NCBI GenBank assembly: GCA_041738755.1 | Contig: JBGSPE010000002.1 | Coordinates: 13,290 to 77,289 of the forward strand | Direction of reading: 5' to 3' | Origin: Minisyncoccia bacterium | GTDB lineage: Bacteria > Patescibacteriota > Minisyncoccia > Phycocordibacterales > UBA918 | DNA: 64,000 nucleotides | Shown: positions 4,135 to 58,340 of the stretch, in pieces | Numbering within the stretch: the stretch's first letter is position 1 | Layout of the letters: each line of letters opens with the position of its first letter | Notes under the pieces: generated by a model | Database searches by the model: none | What the model was told of the DNA's origin: nothing | Seen by the model: only the letters and a program-made list of their open reading frames with translations | Position numbers and translations under genes: made by a program

Positions 4135-5034
4135 CTACTGTGACTCGATAAATTCTAGTGCCGCGGCTTTGGCCCAGTTTTCTTCAACATAGCCTGCACG
4201 TCCTGAACCTTTCTTGTACCGTTCGTAATGTTCAGACGATTTTTTGTAATAGTCTTGGTGGTATTCTTCAGCTTCGAAGAAGGTTGTAAACGGTACAATG
4301 GGCGTTACGATAGGAGCTGAGAATAGTCCACTATCTGTCAGTGCTTGCTTTGAAGCGCTAGCAATCGTTCGCTGCGACTCATTATGAAAGTAAATAGCTG
4401 TTGTATAGTGTGAACCTCGGTCAGCAAATTGTCCTCCAGCATCAGTTGGATTGATATGTGACCAATACACGGCAAGAACCTCTTGAAGCGTAATTCGAGC
4501 TGGATCATACGTCACTTGAACTGCTTCGCGATGTCCAGTCGTACCTTTGACGACTTGCTTATAGGTAGCAGTGCTCGCTTCTCCCCCAGCGTACCCGGAG
4601 ACAGCCGACACTACACCAGGAGTTTCCTGTAGGTACGCTTCAGTACACCAGAAACATCCCCCCGCCAGCGTAATCACTGCTCGCTGCCCAGAGTCGGTGA
4701 TTGGCCGATTCGGCTCTGCCTTAACTTCTTGATTAACAATTGCTTGTATTGCTGTAGGGTCGACTGATACTGCCGCTGGAGCGGGGTTAGCAACGTCATC
4801 TGGAATAGTGGGGGCAGCTACGGTACCGGTAGCTGTGGCATCAGCAGTGGTGGTAGCCGTACTTACAAGACTACTCGGATTTTCCGAAACCTGCTCTAAA
4901 GCCTTTGGTGCAAATTGACTAAAGCCCAAAGCGGCTATCGCTAAGACAATAATAACTCCTGCAAAAAGGGCGGTCTGTTTGGTAATGTGATTTTTCATAA
5001 TGTAAAGTCTACCATACATTATAAAAATAACCAA
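4135..5034 (-). CDS. msrA: Peptide methionine sulfoxide reductase MsrA with an N-terminal membrane anchor and low-complexity linker
   Basis: GGCFWC active-site motif and the surrounding MsrA fold sequence. An N-terminal TM helix and an Ala/Thr/Pro-rich linker are present. The start is probably the internal Met near 4998. Confidence 0.8.
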   Translation of the reverse strand: MVIFIMYGRLYIMKNHITKQTALFAGVIIVLAIAALGFSQFAPKALEQVSENPSSLVSTATTTADATATGTVAAPTIPDDVANPAPAAVSVDPTAIQAIVNQEVKAEPNRPITDSGQRAVITLAGGCFWCTEAYLQETPGVVSAVSGYAGGEASTATYKQVVKGTTGHREAVQVTYDPARITLQEVLAVYWSHINPTDAGGQFADRGSHYTTAIYFHNESQRTIASASKQALTDSGLFSAPIVTPIVPFTTFFEAEEYHQDYYKKSSEHYERYKKGSGRAGYVEENWAKAAALEFIESQ

Positions 5035-12637: not shown

Positions 12638-13315
12638 TTGCGAAACGATACTCAATCTTCTTATACTCGAAAAGACACTCGAACCAAAATTAATCATGCC
12701 ATTAAGGCTGCCGAACTCAGAGTGATTGGACCTGAAGGTGAAAACCTCGGTACCCTGTCAACCGCTGACGCCCTTAAACAAGCTGAGAAATTTAAGCTCG
12801 ATTTGATTGAAATTTCTCCTAACGCCAAACCACCCGTTGCTAAAATAATGGACTTTGGTAAGTATCGCTATGAAACCGGCCGTAAGGCTCGTGAAGTGAA
12901 GGCCAAGTCGCACGTGACAGAAACCAAGAGCGTCCAGGTAAAGATTGGTACAGGCGATCATGACCAACAACTCAAAGCCAAGCGCGCCGCTGAATGGCTT
13001 GAGGAAGGTCACCGCGTAAAAGTCGACCTCTTCCTTTGGGGCCGCTACAAATACATGGAAGCAGAATTTCTCAAGGAACGACTTGATCGATTTCTTAAAA
13101 TCATCCCATCAGACTACAAGGTCGCTGATCCAATAAAAAAGAGTCCCAAAGGCTTCACAACGACCCTCGAACGTGTCCCTGGGGCTAAAGTCAAAAAGCC
13201 AAAGCAATTGGCCGAAGTTGCTCCAGAAAGCCAGAAGGCTGAAAAAAGCACTGAAACTAAGGAAAAATCAAAGAAAAAGTCACTTGATGACTTCCTCGAT
13301 GCGGGGATGATTTAA
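12638..13315 (+). CDS. infC: Translation initiation factor IF-3
   Basis: INHAIKAAELRVIGPEGENLG ... VAKIMDFGKYRYE ... VKVDLFLWGR. The true start may be an upstream non-AUG codon, as is usual for infC. C-terminal K/E-rich tail. Confidence 0.85.
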   Translation: MRNDTQSSYTRKDTRTKINHAIKAAELRVIGPEGENLGTLSTADALKQAEKFKLDLIEISPNAKPPVAKIMDFGKYRYETGRKAREVKAKSHVTETKSVQVKIGTGDHDQQLKAKRAAEWLEEGHRVKVDLFLWGRYKYMEAEFLKERLDRFLKIIPSDYKVADPIKKSPKGFTTTLERVPGAKVKKPKQLAEVAPESQKAEKSTETKEKSKKKSLDDFLDAGMI

Positions 13316-17554: not shown

Positions 17555-18187
17555 TTAGCTCGCTGCTTGGCTGAGTACTGTCGTACGTTCTTTGAGCAGT
17601 TCCTGAATTTTAGCCTCTGTTTCATCATAGGCACCTTCACCGATATGATCGTACACGATATTGCCGTGAATATCGATGAGGTACATCCGTGGCCAGTAGC
17701 GATTGCCGAGAGCTCTCCAGGTACCATAGTCATTATCGAGGACTGTAGGAAATTTGATACCGAACTCAGCAAACGCTTTCTCTACATTTGCCTTATCTTT
17801 TTCGTAGGCAAATTCGGGCGTATGAACTCCAATCACAATCAGACCTTCATCTTTGTATTTCTCATACCAGCTATTTACATACGGGAAGGTCCGTTGGCAG
17901 TTGATACAGCTGTACGTCATGACATCGAGTAAAATCACCTGCTTCCCTACGTAATCAGCTATCTTAAATGGCTGGTCGTTGGTATTCACAAACCCAGCCG
18001 GGTTTTGAATTTCAACGAATGGTATTCCCATGACTTTTTCAGTTTCGGCTTTAGTGGTTTGTTCTTTGGTAACTTCGCCCGACTCTCCTGCCACCGACTC
18101 TTGAGTCGCTCCAGAAAACGTGACGACGCCAAGAGCTGCAAGCGCCAACACACCGATGATGCTGACTATAATGACTGATGGGTTCAT
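17555..18187 (-). CDS. Thioredoxin-fold redoxin (TlpA/AhpC-TSA-like), membrane-anchored
   Basis: N-terminal TM helix. Redox motif YSCINCQRTF within a thioredoxin-like fold sequence. Confidence 0.6.
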   Translation of the reverse strand: MNPSVIIVSIIGVLALAALGVVTFSGATQESVAGESGEVTKEQTTKAETEKVMGIPFVEIQNPAGFVNTNDQPFKIADYVGKQVILLDVMTYSCINCQRTFPYVNSWYEKYKDEGLIVIGVHTPEFAYEKDKANVEKAFAEFGIKFPTVLDNDYGTWRALGNRYWPRMYLIDIHGNIVYDHIGEGAYDETEAKIQELLKERTTVLSQAAS

Positions 18188-18379
18188 ACGTATATGTAAT
18201 CCAATAAACGATGGTCTTCTTTAGTGATGCAGAGCGAGCGAAGCCACCACGATATTCGGGGTGGCTTTACTCCGGCTAGAAGTAGGTGACCCAATCACGA
18301 CAGGTAGTAGCGGTAGAATACACGGTGCAAGCACGGTGATGATTCTCGCTAAAAACACTATCGCGAAAAAGGTCAGGGA

Positions 18380-18961
18380 CTACTTGATATTCTTTACGAG
18401 ATCTTCGAGAGTAGATCCACCTGTCCACTTAGCGATTTGGTTGCCGCTCTTGTCAACTTGCACGAGTGTGTGCTGTGTTGTAACACCGTACTTTTGTTTT
18501 AAGTCAGTAGCTCGATCGTAATCAACTTCAAGAATTGTTACATTAGCAGGAATGTCGCTAAGACTGGCCTTGATATCAGCATCGAGGGCTCGACAACTTG
18601 GACACCATGAAGCTTTGAAAAATAATACGACATCTCCAGTTTCAGCCATAGCAAGCTTTGAGGCATCGTATGGCGCGTATAAACCAGCTTTTTCCATCAT
18701 CGCTCCATCATCTTTCTTTTCCATCATGGCACCGTCTTCAGTCTTTTCCATCATTGTGCCATCTTCATTCTTTTCCATCATCGCTCCATCTTCTTTCATC
18801 ATTTTCTCTTCTTCCATTGCCTTTTGTTCCATCATCATCTTTTCTTCTTCCATCATCTTTTGTTCCATCATAGCTTTTTCTTGTTGACCGTTAGAATATG
18901 CAAATACTCCCGCACCAACAACGAGTAAACCGACAACACCTACAATGATTTTTGTATCCAT
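18380..18961 (-). CDS. Thioredoxin-family protein with an N-terminal TM helix and a Met/Glu/Lys-rich repeat region
   Basis: C-terminal thioredoxin fold with WCPSCR. It is preceded by about 80 aa of repeats (MMEQK, MMEEEK, AMMEK, DGAMMEK); the underlying DNA is also tandem-repetitive. Confidence 0.6.
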   Translation of the reverse strand: MDTKIIVGVVGLLVVGAGVFAYSNGQQEKAMMEQKMMEEEKMMMEQKAMEEEKMMKEDGAMMEKNEDGTMMEKTEDGAMMEKKDDGAMMEKAGLYAPYDASKLAMAETGDVVLFFKASWCPSCRALDADIKASLSDIPANVTILEVDYDRATDLKQKYGVTTQHTLVQVDKSGNQIAKWTGGSTLEDLVKNIK

Positions 18962-19030
18962 ACGTTATTTTAAATAGAGATTACTGATAATAGTTTCTCT
19001 GACAGGTAGTATAGCAGACTTTACATAGCG

Positions 19031-19048
19031 TGTAAAGCTTACTTTACA
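19031..19048. promoter_or_regulatory. Palindromic operator-like motif TGTAAAGCTTACTTTACA upstream of the 18961 gene
   Basis: One of three near-identical TGTAAAG-N4/5-CTTTACA sites in the window. Confidence 0.4.
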
Positions 19049-19079
19049 TATAGAGACGCTGTCTGTTTCTCCCCGTAGC

Positions 19080-19529
19080 TTACGGATTAATTTGAGCATG
19101 ATTGAATAACACCGAGAAATCTTCACACCAGATGAGGGCATATTGATACTTAGCTAAATCGGTATCGTCTGGGATAGCGTAATTCACATCACCTTCAGTC
19201 GCCTTCAATTCACCCAAGTCAATAAACTCAGTCGCTTCAAGGTCAATACTTAAATACACTCGGAGATCAGGACCGTTGATAGTTTGAAAATCTTCATACC
19301 GTAAGGTGCGTTGCTCACCAGTCTGAACAATCGCCACGCTACCCGACGCGGGGTGAGTTGGGGTATCTATAATCGGTCGATTGGACACCACTATCGTGCT
19401 ATTGATTGGAGCATCTTCAATCACCGTAACAGTCTGCCAAAGCGGTGATAGTGCATAGTACGCAACGGCACCAGCCAGGACCAGGAAGAGGACGATGATT
19501 ACTTTGAGTGTTGTATTAATTTTTATCAT
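19080..19529 (-). CDS. Hypothetical secreted protein
   Basis: Start set at the internal Met (MIKINTTLKVIIVLF, signal/TM). The longer frame runs through a terminator-like hairpin and the operator motif. Confidence 0.4.
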   Translation of the reverse strand: MIKINTTLKVIIVLFLVLAGAVAYYALSPLWQTVTVIEDAPINSTIVVSNRPIIDTPTHPASGSVAIVQTGEQRTLRYEDFQTINGPDLRVYLSIDLEATEFIDLGELKATEGDVNYAIPDDTDLAKYQYALIWCEDFSVLFNHAQINP

Positions 19530-19544
19530 AGTTTTACTATAACA

Positions 19545-19562
19545 TGTAAAGCTTACTTTACA
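19545..19562. promoter_or_regulatory. Second copy of the palindromic motif TGTAAAGCTTACTTTACA, 16 nt upstream of the 19529 start
   Basis: Exact repeat of the 19031 site. Confidence 0.4.
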
Positions 19563-19596
19563 AGCACTATATAAAAAATACCTCCCAAAGGAGGCA

Positions 19597-19802
19597 TTTT
19601 TATATGGAACCACAGACGCATGCTCCTGACCTTAGGCCAAGTGGGCACCTTTTCCGATTCGTGTCAGAAATCCGTAACCGGTTCTCTTTACTCCTCGCGA
19701 GTACAGGCAGCCCTGATGCTATGTATTCGGAACATACGTAATGTGGTTCCATCTCTCAGTATACGCTAAATATGAAAACGTGAAATGTGTATAACAATAA
19801 TA
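19597..19802. ncRNA. Candidate small structured RNA, strand uncertain (minus favoured)
   Basis: A ~200-nt non-coding stretch bracketed by two terminator-like hairpins with T-runs (19573-19596 and 19802-19828). An 11-bp closing stem (ATGGAACCACA / TGTGGTTCCAT) encloses ~130 nt. No protein-coding frame. Confidence 0.2.
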
Positions 19803-56936: not shown

Positions 56937-58259
56937 CTACCACCCCAACTTCTTCATTCCCTCAAAGACACGTTTGAATCCGGCAATATTAGCTCCCTTT
57001 ACATAATCAATACCGCTTTCTGTTTCACCATTCTCTACACACAGCTGATGAATCGTATTCATAATGCTGCGAAGTTCAGTATCAACTCGCTCGCGTGTCC
57101 ATGGATAGTGTGAGGCATGTTGCGACATCTCAAGTCCCGATACGGCTACCCCACCGGCGTTAGCTGCTTTTCCTGGAGCAAACGGAATACCAGAGGCACG
57201 CACAACGTGAGCTGCCTCAAGTGTGAGTGGCATATTAGCCCCCTCAACAATCAGCTTGGCATGTTGAACCATCGATTTTGCATCATCTACACTCACTTCA
57301 TTTTGGGTTGCGCAAGGGAAATACGCATCAGCCTTAACGACTTGCCAGAGTGAACCTGCCGCATAGGTAGTATCAGCAATCTCTACGGCGTCAAGATTTT
57401 GACCTGACTGCTTTACCTTCATGATGGTAGTGATGTCATCTTGTGAAAAGCCTGATTCTTTATACACGTACCCACCGCGATCTGAGAGCGTCATAACTAC
57501 CGCTCCAAGCTCAATCAGTTTACGAGCGGTAAACTCAGCCACATTGCCTGAGCCTGAAACCGCTACCTTCATTCCGCTCAGTTCCAGTCCATGTTGCTTG
57601 GCCATTGCCTCAGCAAAATACACAATGCCGTACCCCGTTGCTTCAGTCCGACCAAGCGATCCACCAATCAGAGGATCTTTTCCGGTGAGAGCACCTTCAT
57701 TACTATTTGTAATCTCTTTGTACATTCCGTGCATGTATCCAATCTCACGGCCACCCACTCCAATATCTCCTGCCGGCACATCTCGGTCGATACCAATATG
57801 GCGATGTAGTTCGAGCATGAACGCTCTTGTAAACGACCGAATTTCGTTATCGCTCTTCCCTTTTGGATTAAAATCACTTCCACCCTTACCAGCTCCCAAA
57901 GGTAGTCCCGTTAAGGCATTTTTAAACATTTGTTCAAACCCCAGAAACTTTAAGACGTCTTCAGTGACAGTAGGGTCAAATCGTAACCCGCCTTTATATG
58001 GGCCAAGAGCAGAATTAAACTGCACTCGATAACCTGTATTAGTTTGCATTACTCCAGCGTCATCTACCCAGTCGACTCGAAACGTAATCACTCGCTCAGG
58101 CAACAACATTCGGTATACCCTTTTGTAGTCGGCTTCAGTGGCTTCTATACGTTCAAGATAAGGAGTAATACTTTCTAAAAGTTCCGTTACGGCCTGCAAG
58201 AATGTTGGTTGGTGCTGAAACTGGGCACGAACCATTTCGTTGATGGTATTAATAGTCAT
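56937..58259 (-). CDS. gdhA: NADP-specific glutamate dehydrogenase
   Basis: GGLRFDP ... ALTGLPLGAGKGGSDFNPKGKSD (catalytic Lys region) and GSGNVA (Rossmann). 440 aa. Confidence 0.85.
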   Translation of the reverse strand: MTINTINEMVRAQFQHQPTFLQAVTELLESITPYLERIEATEADYKRVYRMLLPERVITFRVDWVDDAGVMQTNTGYRVQFNSALGPYKGGLRFDPTVTEDVLKFLGFEQMFKNALTGLPLGAGKGGSDFNPKGKSDNEIRSFTRAFMLELHRHIGIDRDVPAGDIGVGGREIGYMHGMYKEITNSNEGALTGKDPLIGGSLGRTEATGYGIVYFAEAMAKQHGLELSGMKVAVSGSGNVAEFTARKLIELGAVVMTLSDRGGYVYKESGFSQDDITTIMKVKQSGQNLDAVEIADTTYAAGSLWQVVKADAYFPCATQNEVSVDDAKSMVQHAKLIVEGANMPLTLEAAHVVRASGIPFAPGKAANAGGVAVSGLEMSQHASHYPWTRERVDTELRSIMNTIHQLCVENGETESGIDYVKGANIAGFKRVFEGMKKLGW

Positions 58260-58288
58260 ACCAAACAGTATATACGATATTACATATA

Positions 58289-58306
58289 TGTAAAGTAAAC
58301 TTTACA
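58289..58306. promoter_or_regulatory. Third copy of the palindromic operator-like motif (TGTAAAGTAAACTTTACA), 30 nt upstream of the gdhA start
   Basis: Same half-sites TGTAAAG/CTTTACA as at 19031 and 19545, with a 4-nt spacer. Confidence 0.4.
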
Positions 58307-58340
58307 TATATATTTATTCTAAGTATTGAGCAAGCTTTGC

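Follow-up and report, generated by a model that had tools for sequence, protein, structure and literature searches.

Why should the gene of a membrane-anchored thioredoxin (trx), the gene of a secreted DM13-domain protein and the glutamate dehydrogenase gene gdhA of a Minisyncoccia bacterium be preceded by one and the same palindrome? The question arises from a stretch of 64,000 nucleotides (positions 13,290 to 77,289 of contig JBGSPE010000002.1, GenBank assembly GCA_041738755.1), hereafter called the window, in which 18-mers of the form TGTAAAG-N4-CTTTACA occur at 19031-19048, 19545-19562 and 58289-58306. An initial annotation, made from the letters alone, had taken them for the shared operator of a putative dimeric repressor that controls a small regulon including redoxin-locus genes and gdhA. 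The analysis described here supported this proposal through the conservation of the motif and through a co-conserved XRE-family gene found beside it. The motif is a genuine, conserved regulatory motif, and judged from sequence evidence the palindromes are in all probability operators of a homodimeric Cro/C1-type (XRE, HTH_3) regulator related to CylR2, the repressor of the Enterococcus faecalis cytolysin operon.

Five sites in the window, compared with chance

The coordinates of the three 18-mers were exact in the sequence. Their distances to the start codons, reported as 70, 16 and 30 nt, were 69 nt for the first trx operator (O1), 15 nt for DM13 and 29 nt for gdhA, and the start of the DM13 gene was corrected from a GTG at 19613 to the ATG at 19529. 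The three listed sites stood, and two had been overlooked: one in front of msrA, and a degenerate second trx operator (O2) 23 bp downstream of O1 (Table 1). A centre of four or five nucleotides had been allowed; every site had N4, and none had N5. The five sites belong to four promoters (trx with two sites, DM13, gdhA and msrA), and all five lie on the promoter side of minus-strand genes, as had been described for the first three, with none in a coding region.

When up to two mismatches were allowed, five matches were found in the window versus 0.27 expected, and none of 100 shuffled sequences gave five. A 24-bp position weight matrix (PWM) was then used, whose training set consisted of 25 sites, all from relatives, with the window sites left out. 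After the five sites, the best PWM score in the window was 7.3. In 100 Markov-simulated windows the maximum was 20.0 and the mean 9.1; four of the five window sites scored above this maximum, and the second trx site (19.2) scored below it.

Conservation of the motif across Patescibacteria

An alignment of DM13 homologues led to 80 metagenome loci of relatives, 662 kb in total, which are cited below by their L numbers. Seventeen exact copies of TGTAAAG-N4-CTTTACA occurred in these 662 kb versus approximately 0.004 expected from base composition, and nearly all of them were located either 47-70 nt upstream of a Met-rich thioredoxin gene or, for DM13 and the DM13-MsrA-MsrB fusions, 8-29 nt in front of the gene. 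Sites orthologous to the trx operator were present in at least 13 relatives, and among 18 aligned sites the 7-nt arms were invariant and the 4-bp centre was variable. Conservation upstream of the orthologues was therefore found for thioredoxin and DM13 across many Patescibacteria, and for the closest gdhA orthologue as well. The gene order adk-map-ndk-DM13-...-trx-...-beta-CASP-...-rplT-infC is syntenic with the Patescibacterial contigs L163-L165, and the nearest GdhA and XRE homologues carry Parcubacteria or Paceibacterota names.

At a PWM score of at least 18, 34 hits were obtained in the 231 kb of loci that bear the XRE regulator gene. The same threshold gave no hit in 430 kb of DM13 loci without a regulator gene and none in 1.25 Mb of unrelated loci, the two sets that served as control (1.68 Mb). 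The XRE-anchored locus L175, which was outside the training set, had sites scoring 32.0 and 22.7. The motif is present in each of the 18 loci in which an XRE gene was detectable, 59 loci have neither, and the motif-bearing loci without an XRE gene are all cut by a contig end. Occurrence at random positions inside genes, named in the initial annotation as an observation that would tell against a regulon, was not seen: the window sites are all in promoter regions, and the PWM had no hits in the control DNA.

Two trivial explanations were rejected. The shuffles, the Markov simulations and the 1.68 Mb of control DNA without a match rule out a chance or low-complexity artefact. Nor are the palindromes promoter hexamers only, given that neither the distal arm nor the C preceding TTTACA varies, that ordinary promoters of the window use TTGACA, and that the DM13-type palindrome lies within the spacer.

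The motif accompanies a gene pair of the CylR2-like type

A search of relatives for a co-conserved transcription factor, which the initial annotation had suggested, found an XRE/HTH_3 gene beside the motif. It is the first gene of a two-gene unit and encodes a 68-70-aa protein (HTH_3 E 4e-16); the second gene, whose overlap with the first is 8 nt, specifies a protein of 117-122 aa in which four transmembrane (TM) helices are predicted, hereafter the 4-TM partner. The common gene order in relatives is [operator]-XRE-TM-[operator]-MetRichTrx-CcdA(-redoxin)-(MsrA/MsrB)-DM13, and in the clade nearest the window it is [operator]-DM13-XRE-TM-[operator x2]-Trx-CcdA. The promoter of the XRE operon itself holds an operator in 10 of 15 non-redundant relatives.

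Because adjacency alone could reflect a cassette, distant homologues of the helix-turn-helix (HTH) protein were checked. The HTH has 2321 homologues, and many Patescibacteria carry it; closer homologues, with 50-57% identity, occur on plasmids of Bacillus cereus and B. thuringiensis, Carnobacterium, Paenibacillus and the haloarchaea Haladaptatus and Halogeometricum. The distant homologues are likewise paired with a small membrane-protein gene, annotated as DUF2178 in the Bacillus cereus and haloarchaeal records. Six of the seven distant HTH-pair loci, two archaea included, have a PWM site scoring 19-23, and five have it directly upstream of the operon. Haladaptatus has TGTAAAG-TACG-CTTTACT followed by TGTAAAG-CGAG-CTTTACG, Bacillus cereus has TGTTAAG-TTAA-TTTTACA, and Carnobacterium has TGTATAA-TAAA-CTTTACA. 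In every HTH homologue compared, the recognition helix retains the segment (T/S)RQ(T/S)I..(I/L)E. Since the operator type is shared by distant HTH pairs, the motif is tied to this HTH subfamily, and its assignment as the predicted operator of the CylR2-like HTH subfamily is well supported.

The first outward loop of the 4-TM partner carries PFWMPxM, in which Met-Pro is nearly invariant (Met in at least 90% of sequences, Pro invariant); the second outward loop carries H..DPW, and the cytoplasmic loop E..DER(E/D)...GR. The protein is below the Pfam thresholds for DUF2178, DUF6773 and DUF3796. In C. glutamicum, MsrR works by thiol sensing in the regulator itself (PMC7532634). Thiol sensing by the XRE protein itself is unlikely, as Cys is not conserved among the XRE proteins.

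Operators overlap the core promoters

Promoters were located by an independent sigma-70 consensus scan. The trx promoter is TTTACA-17-TATACT, with 10/12 consensus matches; the promoter-proximal arm of O1 is its -35 hexamer TTTACA (19036-19031), and the proximal arm of O2 holds its -10 hexamer TATACT (19013-19008). This second site, TGTAAAG-N4-CTATACT, supplies the trx -10 across the window's clade, and the arrangement of O1 and O2 at 23 bp spacing recurs in L083, L084, L096/L099 and L165. The gdhA promoter, TTTACA-16-TATACT, also uses the proximal arm as its -35 (58294-58289), with the -10 at 58272-58267. The DM13 promoter, TTGTAA-16-TATAGT (-35 at 19563-19558, -10 at 19541-19536), holds the operator in its spacer, a layout that recurs in L084, L163, L165 and L175. 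The msrA operator covers the -10 TAGACT (5011-5006), with 2 nt between its end and the ATG at 4998; TTGGTT at 5034-5029 is the -35 there. Among relatives, promoters of the DM13-MsrAB type use the proximal arm as -35, and XRE-operon promoters hold the operator in the spacer.

Only 6-7 nt separate the -10 from the ATG at msrA (4996-5011), DM13 (6 nt; 19527-19541) and gdhA (7 nt; 58257-58272), and these three genes have no Shine-Dalgarno sequence; several relatives are alike in this. The pattern suggests that leaderless mRNAs may be frequent in the lineage. The trx leader is of another length, approximately 45 nt (18962-19007; also in L083, L084, L163 and L165), and contains conserved inverted repeats, CTATAC-N5-GTATAGAGG ... 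CTCTA. Leader and operators together show half-site-like elements every ~11 bp in the order L-R-L-R-L, with no Shine-Dalgarno sequence evident.

Because the core promoters come close to the consensus and the placement of several operators allows occlusion only, repression by occlusion of RNA polymerase is the likeliest mode of action and has a good chance of being the right one.

Genes of the putative regulon

The Met-rich thioredoxin gene is the main conserved target, and the other genes are listed in Table 1. DM13 is fused to MsrA-MsrB in L128 (DM13+PMSR+SelR), L138 and L096, and CcdA of relatives is often fused to redoxin and a Thioredoxin_10 domain. The redoxin of the window is homologous to the redoxin part of this CcdA-redoxin fusion and has acquired its own start and a TM segment, and msrA stands in the window as a separate locus added to the regulon. 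Judging by their annotated domains, Trx, CcdA, redoxin, MsrA/MsrB and DM13 would form a coherent set for the repair of methionine sulfoxide and thiols at the cell surface.

The gdhA site is common to the closest orthologue, L171 (83% identity, PWM 22.3). At L171 630-2765, the operator lies in a 66-nt divergent intergenic region between gdhA and a gene whose 689-aa product joins a pyridine-nucleotide disulfide oxidoreductase to a VTT/DedA membrane domain, and no homologue of this oxidoreductase gene was present in the window.

Table 1. Operators, genes and remnants in the window (coordinates of the 64,000-nt stretch)
Feature	Position	Strand	Description
trx operator O1	19031..19048	-	TGTAAAGCTTACTTTACA; minus strand TGTAAAG-TAAG-CTTTACA; PWM 26.4
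Degenerate second trx operator O2	19008..19025	-	TGTAAAG-TCTG-CTATACT; 23 bp downstream of O1; PWM 19.2
DM13 operator	19545..19562	-	Second copy of TGTAAAGCTTACTTTACA; PWM 26.8
gdhA operator	58289..58306	-	TGTAAAGTAAACTTTACA; PWM 30.9
msrA operator	5001..5018	-	Minus strand TGTATGG-TAGA-CTTTACA; PWM 24.0
Met-rich thioredoxin, membrane-anchored, MMEK-repeat linker	18380..18961	-	Pfam Thioredoxin 4.8e-13; main conserved target gene
DM13-domain protein, secreted or anchored	19080..19529	-	Pfam DM13 1.1e-17
gdhA, NADP-type glutamate dehydrogenase	56937..58259	-	Pfam ELFV_dehydrog
MsrA, membrane-anchored peptide methionine sulfoxide reductase	4135..4998	-	Pfam PMSR 2.8e-58
Redoxin, AhpC/TSA-type	17555..18187	-	Pfam Redoxin; 77.6% identity to L163 residues 240-404
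ccdA (DsbD_TM) pseudogene remnant	18224..18379	-	52 codons, 75% identical to relatives' CcdA N-terminus, directly after trx
Deletion junction	19049..19079	-	31 nt left between DM13 and trx operator, where relatives have XRE and 4-TM genes

Hairpins, flanks and nearby structured elements

The flanks of the palindrome covary. In the 18 aligned sites, 34 double-sided changes were counted versus 16 +/- 3 in shuffles, and none of 500 shuffles reached 34. Complementary flanks that differ in sequence were found at trx-type operators (aaaacaaa/tttgtttt, cagccttaa/ttaaggctg and agagagga/tcctctc). In relatives the extended stems comprise 14-19 bp with -16 to -26 kcal/mol, are located after the XRE-TM operon and are followed in some cases by U-runs; a terminator pattern scanner did not call these stems. 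In the window, complementary flanks extend the gdhA palindrome to approximately 58282-58313 (14-bp stem, -13.8 kcal/mol), and the trx and DM13 sites have the 7-bp core only, with no stem extension. The simplest reading is that the palindromic operator was extended into a terminator of the upstream XRE-TM operon, likely as a secondary role. Most relatives also keep a (T)CCACA box between the stop codon of the 4-TM partner gene and the trx-type operator, 8-12 nt upstream of the latter (for example L093 1108-1113 and L084 7211-7216); the box was not present at the window sites.

Other structured or repeated elements were seen in the window. Between ndk and DM13, a conserved and strongly structured RNA candidate of ~150 nt (19595-19775, minus strand) can form a rod, GGAACCACAU...GUGGUUCC, and 7 nt upstream it has a -10-like TATACT of its own. 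The fold has a z-score of -5.7, nucleotide identity in L163, L165 and L084 is 80-86%, and of the 47 pairs that RNAalifold predicted, 6 show compensatory changes; the candidate matched no Rfam family. A 23-mer, TCTAAAGAACGGGTGGGGAGACA, occurs three times on the plus strand (50125-50147, 52097-52119 and 52636-52658, with 0, 2 and 0 mismatches; none expected by chance), all within an unusually long gene-poor stretch between tuf and fusA. A tmRNA gene was detected at 1542-1935 on the plus strand (Rfam RF00023, 97 bits); ARAGORN reported no tRNA or tmRNA on the window.

Proposed model

Each XRE monomer would read one TGTAAAG arm, leaving the central 4 bp free to vary, and the bound dimer would block RNA polymerase at the -35 (trx, gdhA), inside the spacer (DM13 and, among relatives, the XRE operon) or at the -10 and start (msrA, second trx site). 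In relatives the dimer would also repress its own operon, in which the XRE gene and the 4-TM gene are presumably co-transcribed. By analogy with CylR1/CylR2, the membrane partner may pass on an envelope signal that relieves repression; the signal is perhaps oxidant damage, sensed via the Met-Pro and H..DPW of the outward loops. The regulon in the window would comprise trx, DM13, msrA and, lately, gdhA, with sites served by a regulator copy elsewhere or recently orphaned. Our inferences are the repressive mode, the signal, the leaderless state of the transcripts and the activity of the system in the organism today.

A more specific version, which we put forward as a long shot by analogy, would make the HTH and 4-TM pair a kinase-free envelope sensor. 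The Met-Pro and H..DPW elements might act as a methionine-redox (or Cu/oxidant) switch in which Met oxidation releases the repressor and the Trx-CcdA-Msr set re-reduces the sensor, closing a feedback loop, with the operator doubling as terminator stem of its own operon. The sensor role of the 4-TM partner is conjecture. If the sensor reading is true, it would give a first function to the HTH-DUF2178-type pairs of Firmicutes, archaea and Patescibacteria and would be the first defined stress regulon in bacteria of the candidate phyla radiation (CPR).

Weighing the evidence and the alternatives

Several observations weigh against control of these genes by a CylR2-related regulator with a membrane partner. 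No homologue of the XRE protein or of its 4-TM partner was found in the 64-kb window by tblastn and profile search in six frames, and the ccdA remnant has no start codon and a premature stop. Among relatives, 5 of 15 miss the autoregulatory site, and DM13 of L178, which is the closest DM13 relative, is not preceded by an operator. Twelve sequences of the 4-TM partner gave no Pfam DUF2178 hit at E<=1, and 8 of the 12 a sub-threshold DUF6773 match; the partner has no detectable homology with CylR1 (hhalign probability 2%, E 0.024). The gdhA orthologues at 74-79% identity, including those of a first check on GTDB relatives, have no site. Because the site is present in the closest orthologue and missing at 74-79% identity, gdhA is a recent, lineage-specific recruit to the putative regulon, and NADPH supply for disulfide reduction would be a speculative role for it. 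An operator near -39 could moreover activate in principle, like lambda CI at PRM.

The XRE gene occupies the position between DM13 and trx in L084, L163, L164, L165, L175 and L178, with the TM partner next to it wherever the contig reaches (L178 ends at XRE), so that the comparison presents the pair as cleanly deleted from its ancestral syntenic position. Two short Logan contigs, from SRR28170465 and SRR28170467, carry an identical DM13 gene, and the longer one reaches trx with the same DM13-trx junction. As the regulator gene is missing from the window, present-day regulation in this organism is putative only. The XRE homologues P0102, P0100 and P0166 were rejected as the organism's own regulator, as they belong to other genomes. 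It is possible, at less than an even chance, that the regulator was wholly lost lately and that the palindromes are orphans, parts of constitutive promoters (-35 TTTACA, -10 TATACT) in a decaying module. The clean deletion, the junction seen again in an independent assembly, and a ccdA of which 52 codons are left, with no start codon, all fit this. Against it, those arms that promoter function does not require remain perfect (distal TGTAAAG at trx and gdhA, CTTTACA within the DM13 spacer), four promoters keep sites with scores like those of functional relatives, and the search covered 64 kb of a genome whose phylum commonly carries this HTH. We lean, by a modest margin over even, towards a regulator copy encoded outside the window.

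Other explanations concern what binds the palindrome, or whether anything does. A regulator acting as activator or in a dual role at the trx- and gdhA-type sites, where the centre of the palindrome is near -39 and the bound protein could touch sigma region 4, is improbable. Such promoters do place the operator upstream of and across the -35, and the related small HTH protein GakR has been reported as a positive regulator (bioRxiv 10.64898/2026.09.04.749385). The core promoters, however, already match the consensus closely (10/12, spacers of 16-17 nt) and need no activator, the DM13, msrA and second trx sites lie in the spacer or over the -10 and start, where binding can only block, and CylR2 is a repressor (PMC3709268). 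That the palindrome is primarily an RNA hairpin, an intrinsic terminator or a cruciform with no dedicated DNA-binding protein, is very improbable. The covarying flanks of many relatives and their long, stable stems, some with U-runs behind them, are what such a hairpin would show, but the arms are invariant while loop and flanks vary, the opposite of pure structure. Single arms also occur in non-palindromic settings (TGTAAAG-N4-TTTGACA, TGTAAAG-N4-CTATACT), the trx and DM13 sites of the window are unextended, sites within promoter spacers cannot terminate, and in Firmicutes and archaea, too, the motif goes together with the HTH gene. Least credible of all is a site for a Rex, CRP/FNR or GlnR/TnrA-type regulator under redox or nitrogen control. 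The initial annotation had named a redox- or nitrogen-responsive regulator as an example and had called the motif reminiscent of Rex/CRP-type boxes without being identical to them. The arms superficially resemble TGTGA-type CRP and Rex boxes, and gdhA is a known GlnR target in streptococci. CRP binds TGTGA-N6-TCACA, Rex TTGTGAA-N6-TTCACAA, and GlnR/TnrA the 17-bp TGTNA-N7-TNACA. The half-sites and spacing do not fit these, the motif being TGTAA-N8-TTACA, 18 bp at all sites and not N6 or N7; no regulator gene of these types is conserved beside the sites, the Pfam lists of the syntenic loci contain none of the Rex/Crp family, and XRE always adjoins. The factor would instead be of the Cro/C1-type XRE family.

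The regulon thus proposed for a CylR2-related repressor bears on a field that is almost unexplored, transcriptional regulation in Patescibacteria (CPR), and offers a concrete operator, a candidate repressor and, for this group, a first promoter grammar and a first concrete regulon. The locus itself appears to be caught in mid reductive evolution, with the regulator deleted, ccdA decayed and the operators intact.

Comparison with known systems

One of the closest known systems is that of CylR2, a 66-aa homodimeric HTH_3 repressor; it shares with the Patescibacterial XRE protein 43% identity over 61 aa, the whole length (BLASTP E 7e-16; phmmer versus 1utx E 2.7e-9). A perfect palindrome is also present at the cyl promoter, TTTTGTCAAGTG-T-CACTTGACAAAA, whose arms TGTCAAG/CTTGACA are one base from TGTAAAG/CTTTACA and whose spacer is N5, not N4; we take it to be the CylR2 site on the strength of a review (PMC3709268). 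CylR2 represses together with the small membrane protein CylR1, with no kinase (PMC3709268), and in both systems the gene of a small multi-pass membrane protein adjoins the HTH gene. The gene order differs (cylR1 precedes cylR2), and CylR1 has 3 TM helices versus four in the 4-TM partner, the two sharing only the TM-x-DER motif (DER after a TM helix). The cytolysin system responds to a lantibiotic subunit and controls a toxin operon, whereas the Patescibacterial target would be an envelope repair regulon. No lanthipeptide genes were found among the neighbours of the syntenic loci, which are Trx, CcdA, redoxin, Msr and DM13 instead.

The HTH and DUF2178 pairs of the Bacillus cereus group, Carnobacterium and haloarchaeal plasmids are alike in the 8-nt overlap of HTH and membrane genes, as in L084 (an overlap is present in L084 and L179), and in the operator type upstream of the operon (PWM 19-23). 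Their membrane protein shares a DERE...R.A(Y/F) cytoplasmic loop with the 4-TM partner, and the hhalign match with the Bacillus cereus protein was weak (probability 45%, E 2e-4, 43 columns). These pairs appear to regulate mainly themselves, whereas the Patescibacterial module would control a Trx/Msr regulon. A search of a library of open papers found no publication on DUF2178. An operator shared by Bacillus and haloarchaea makes the module ancient, widespread and testable in tractable hosts, and it places CylR2 within a far larger family sharing a DNA code.

Phage repressors share the geometry. The P22 c2 operator, ATTTAAGATATCTTAAAT (ATTTAAG-ATAT-CTTAAAT), has 18 bp with 4 uncontacted central bp (PMC5175364). 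Its 7-4-7 arrangement, free centre and arms ending in AAG/CTT are those of the present motif, with arms that differ at positions 1, 2 and 4. The 434 repressor is homologous to the XRE protein (E 4e-5). Phage repressors differ in having C-terminal oligomerisation and cleavage domains and in controlling lysogeny.

For the target genes, the nearest parallel is the CcdA-Etrx-MsrAB2 system of S. pneumoniae, in which CcdA feeds a surface thioredoxin that in turn reduces an Msr at the surface (PMC3914529), the same logic as in the Patescibacterial set. [quoted passage not shown] The Met-rich Trx linker and the DM13 domain are specific to the Patescibacterial module. An XRE-type repressor-operator regulon is of a known kind, to which the Patescibacterial case would be a new addition.

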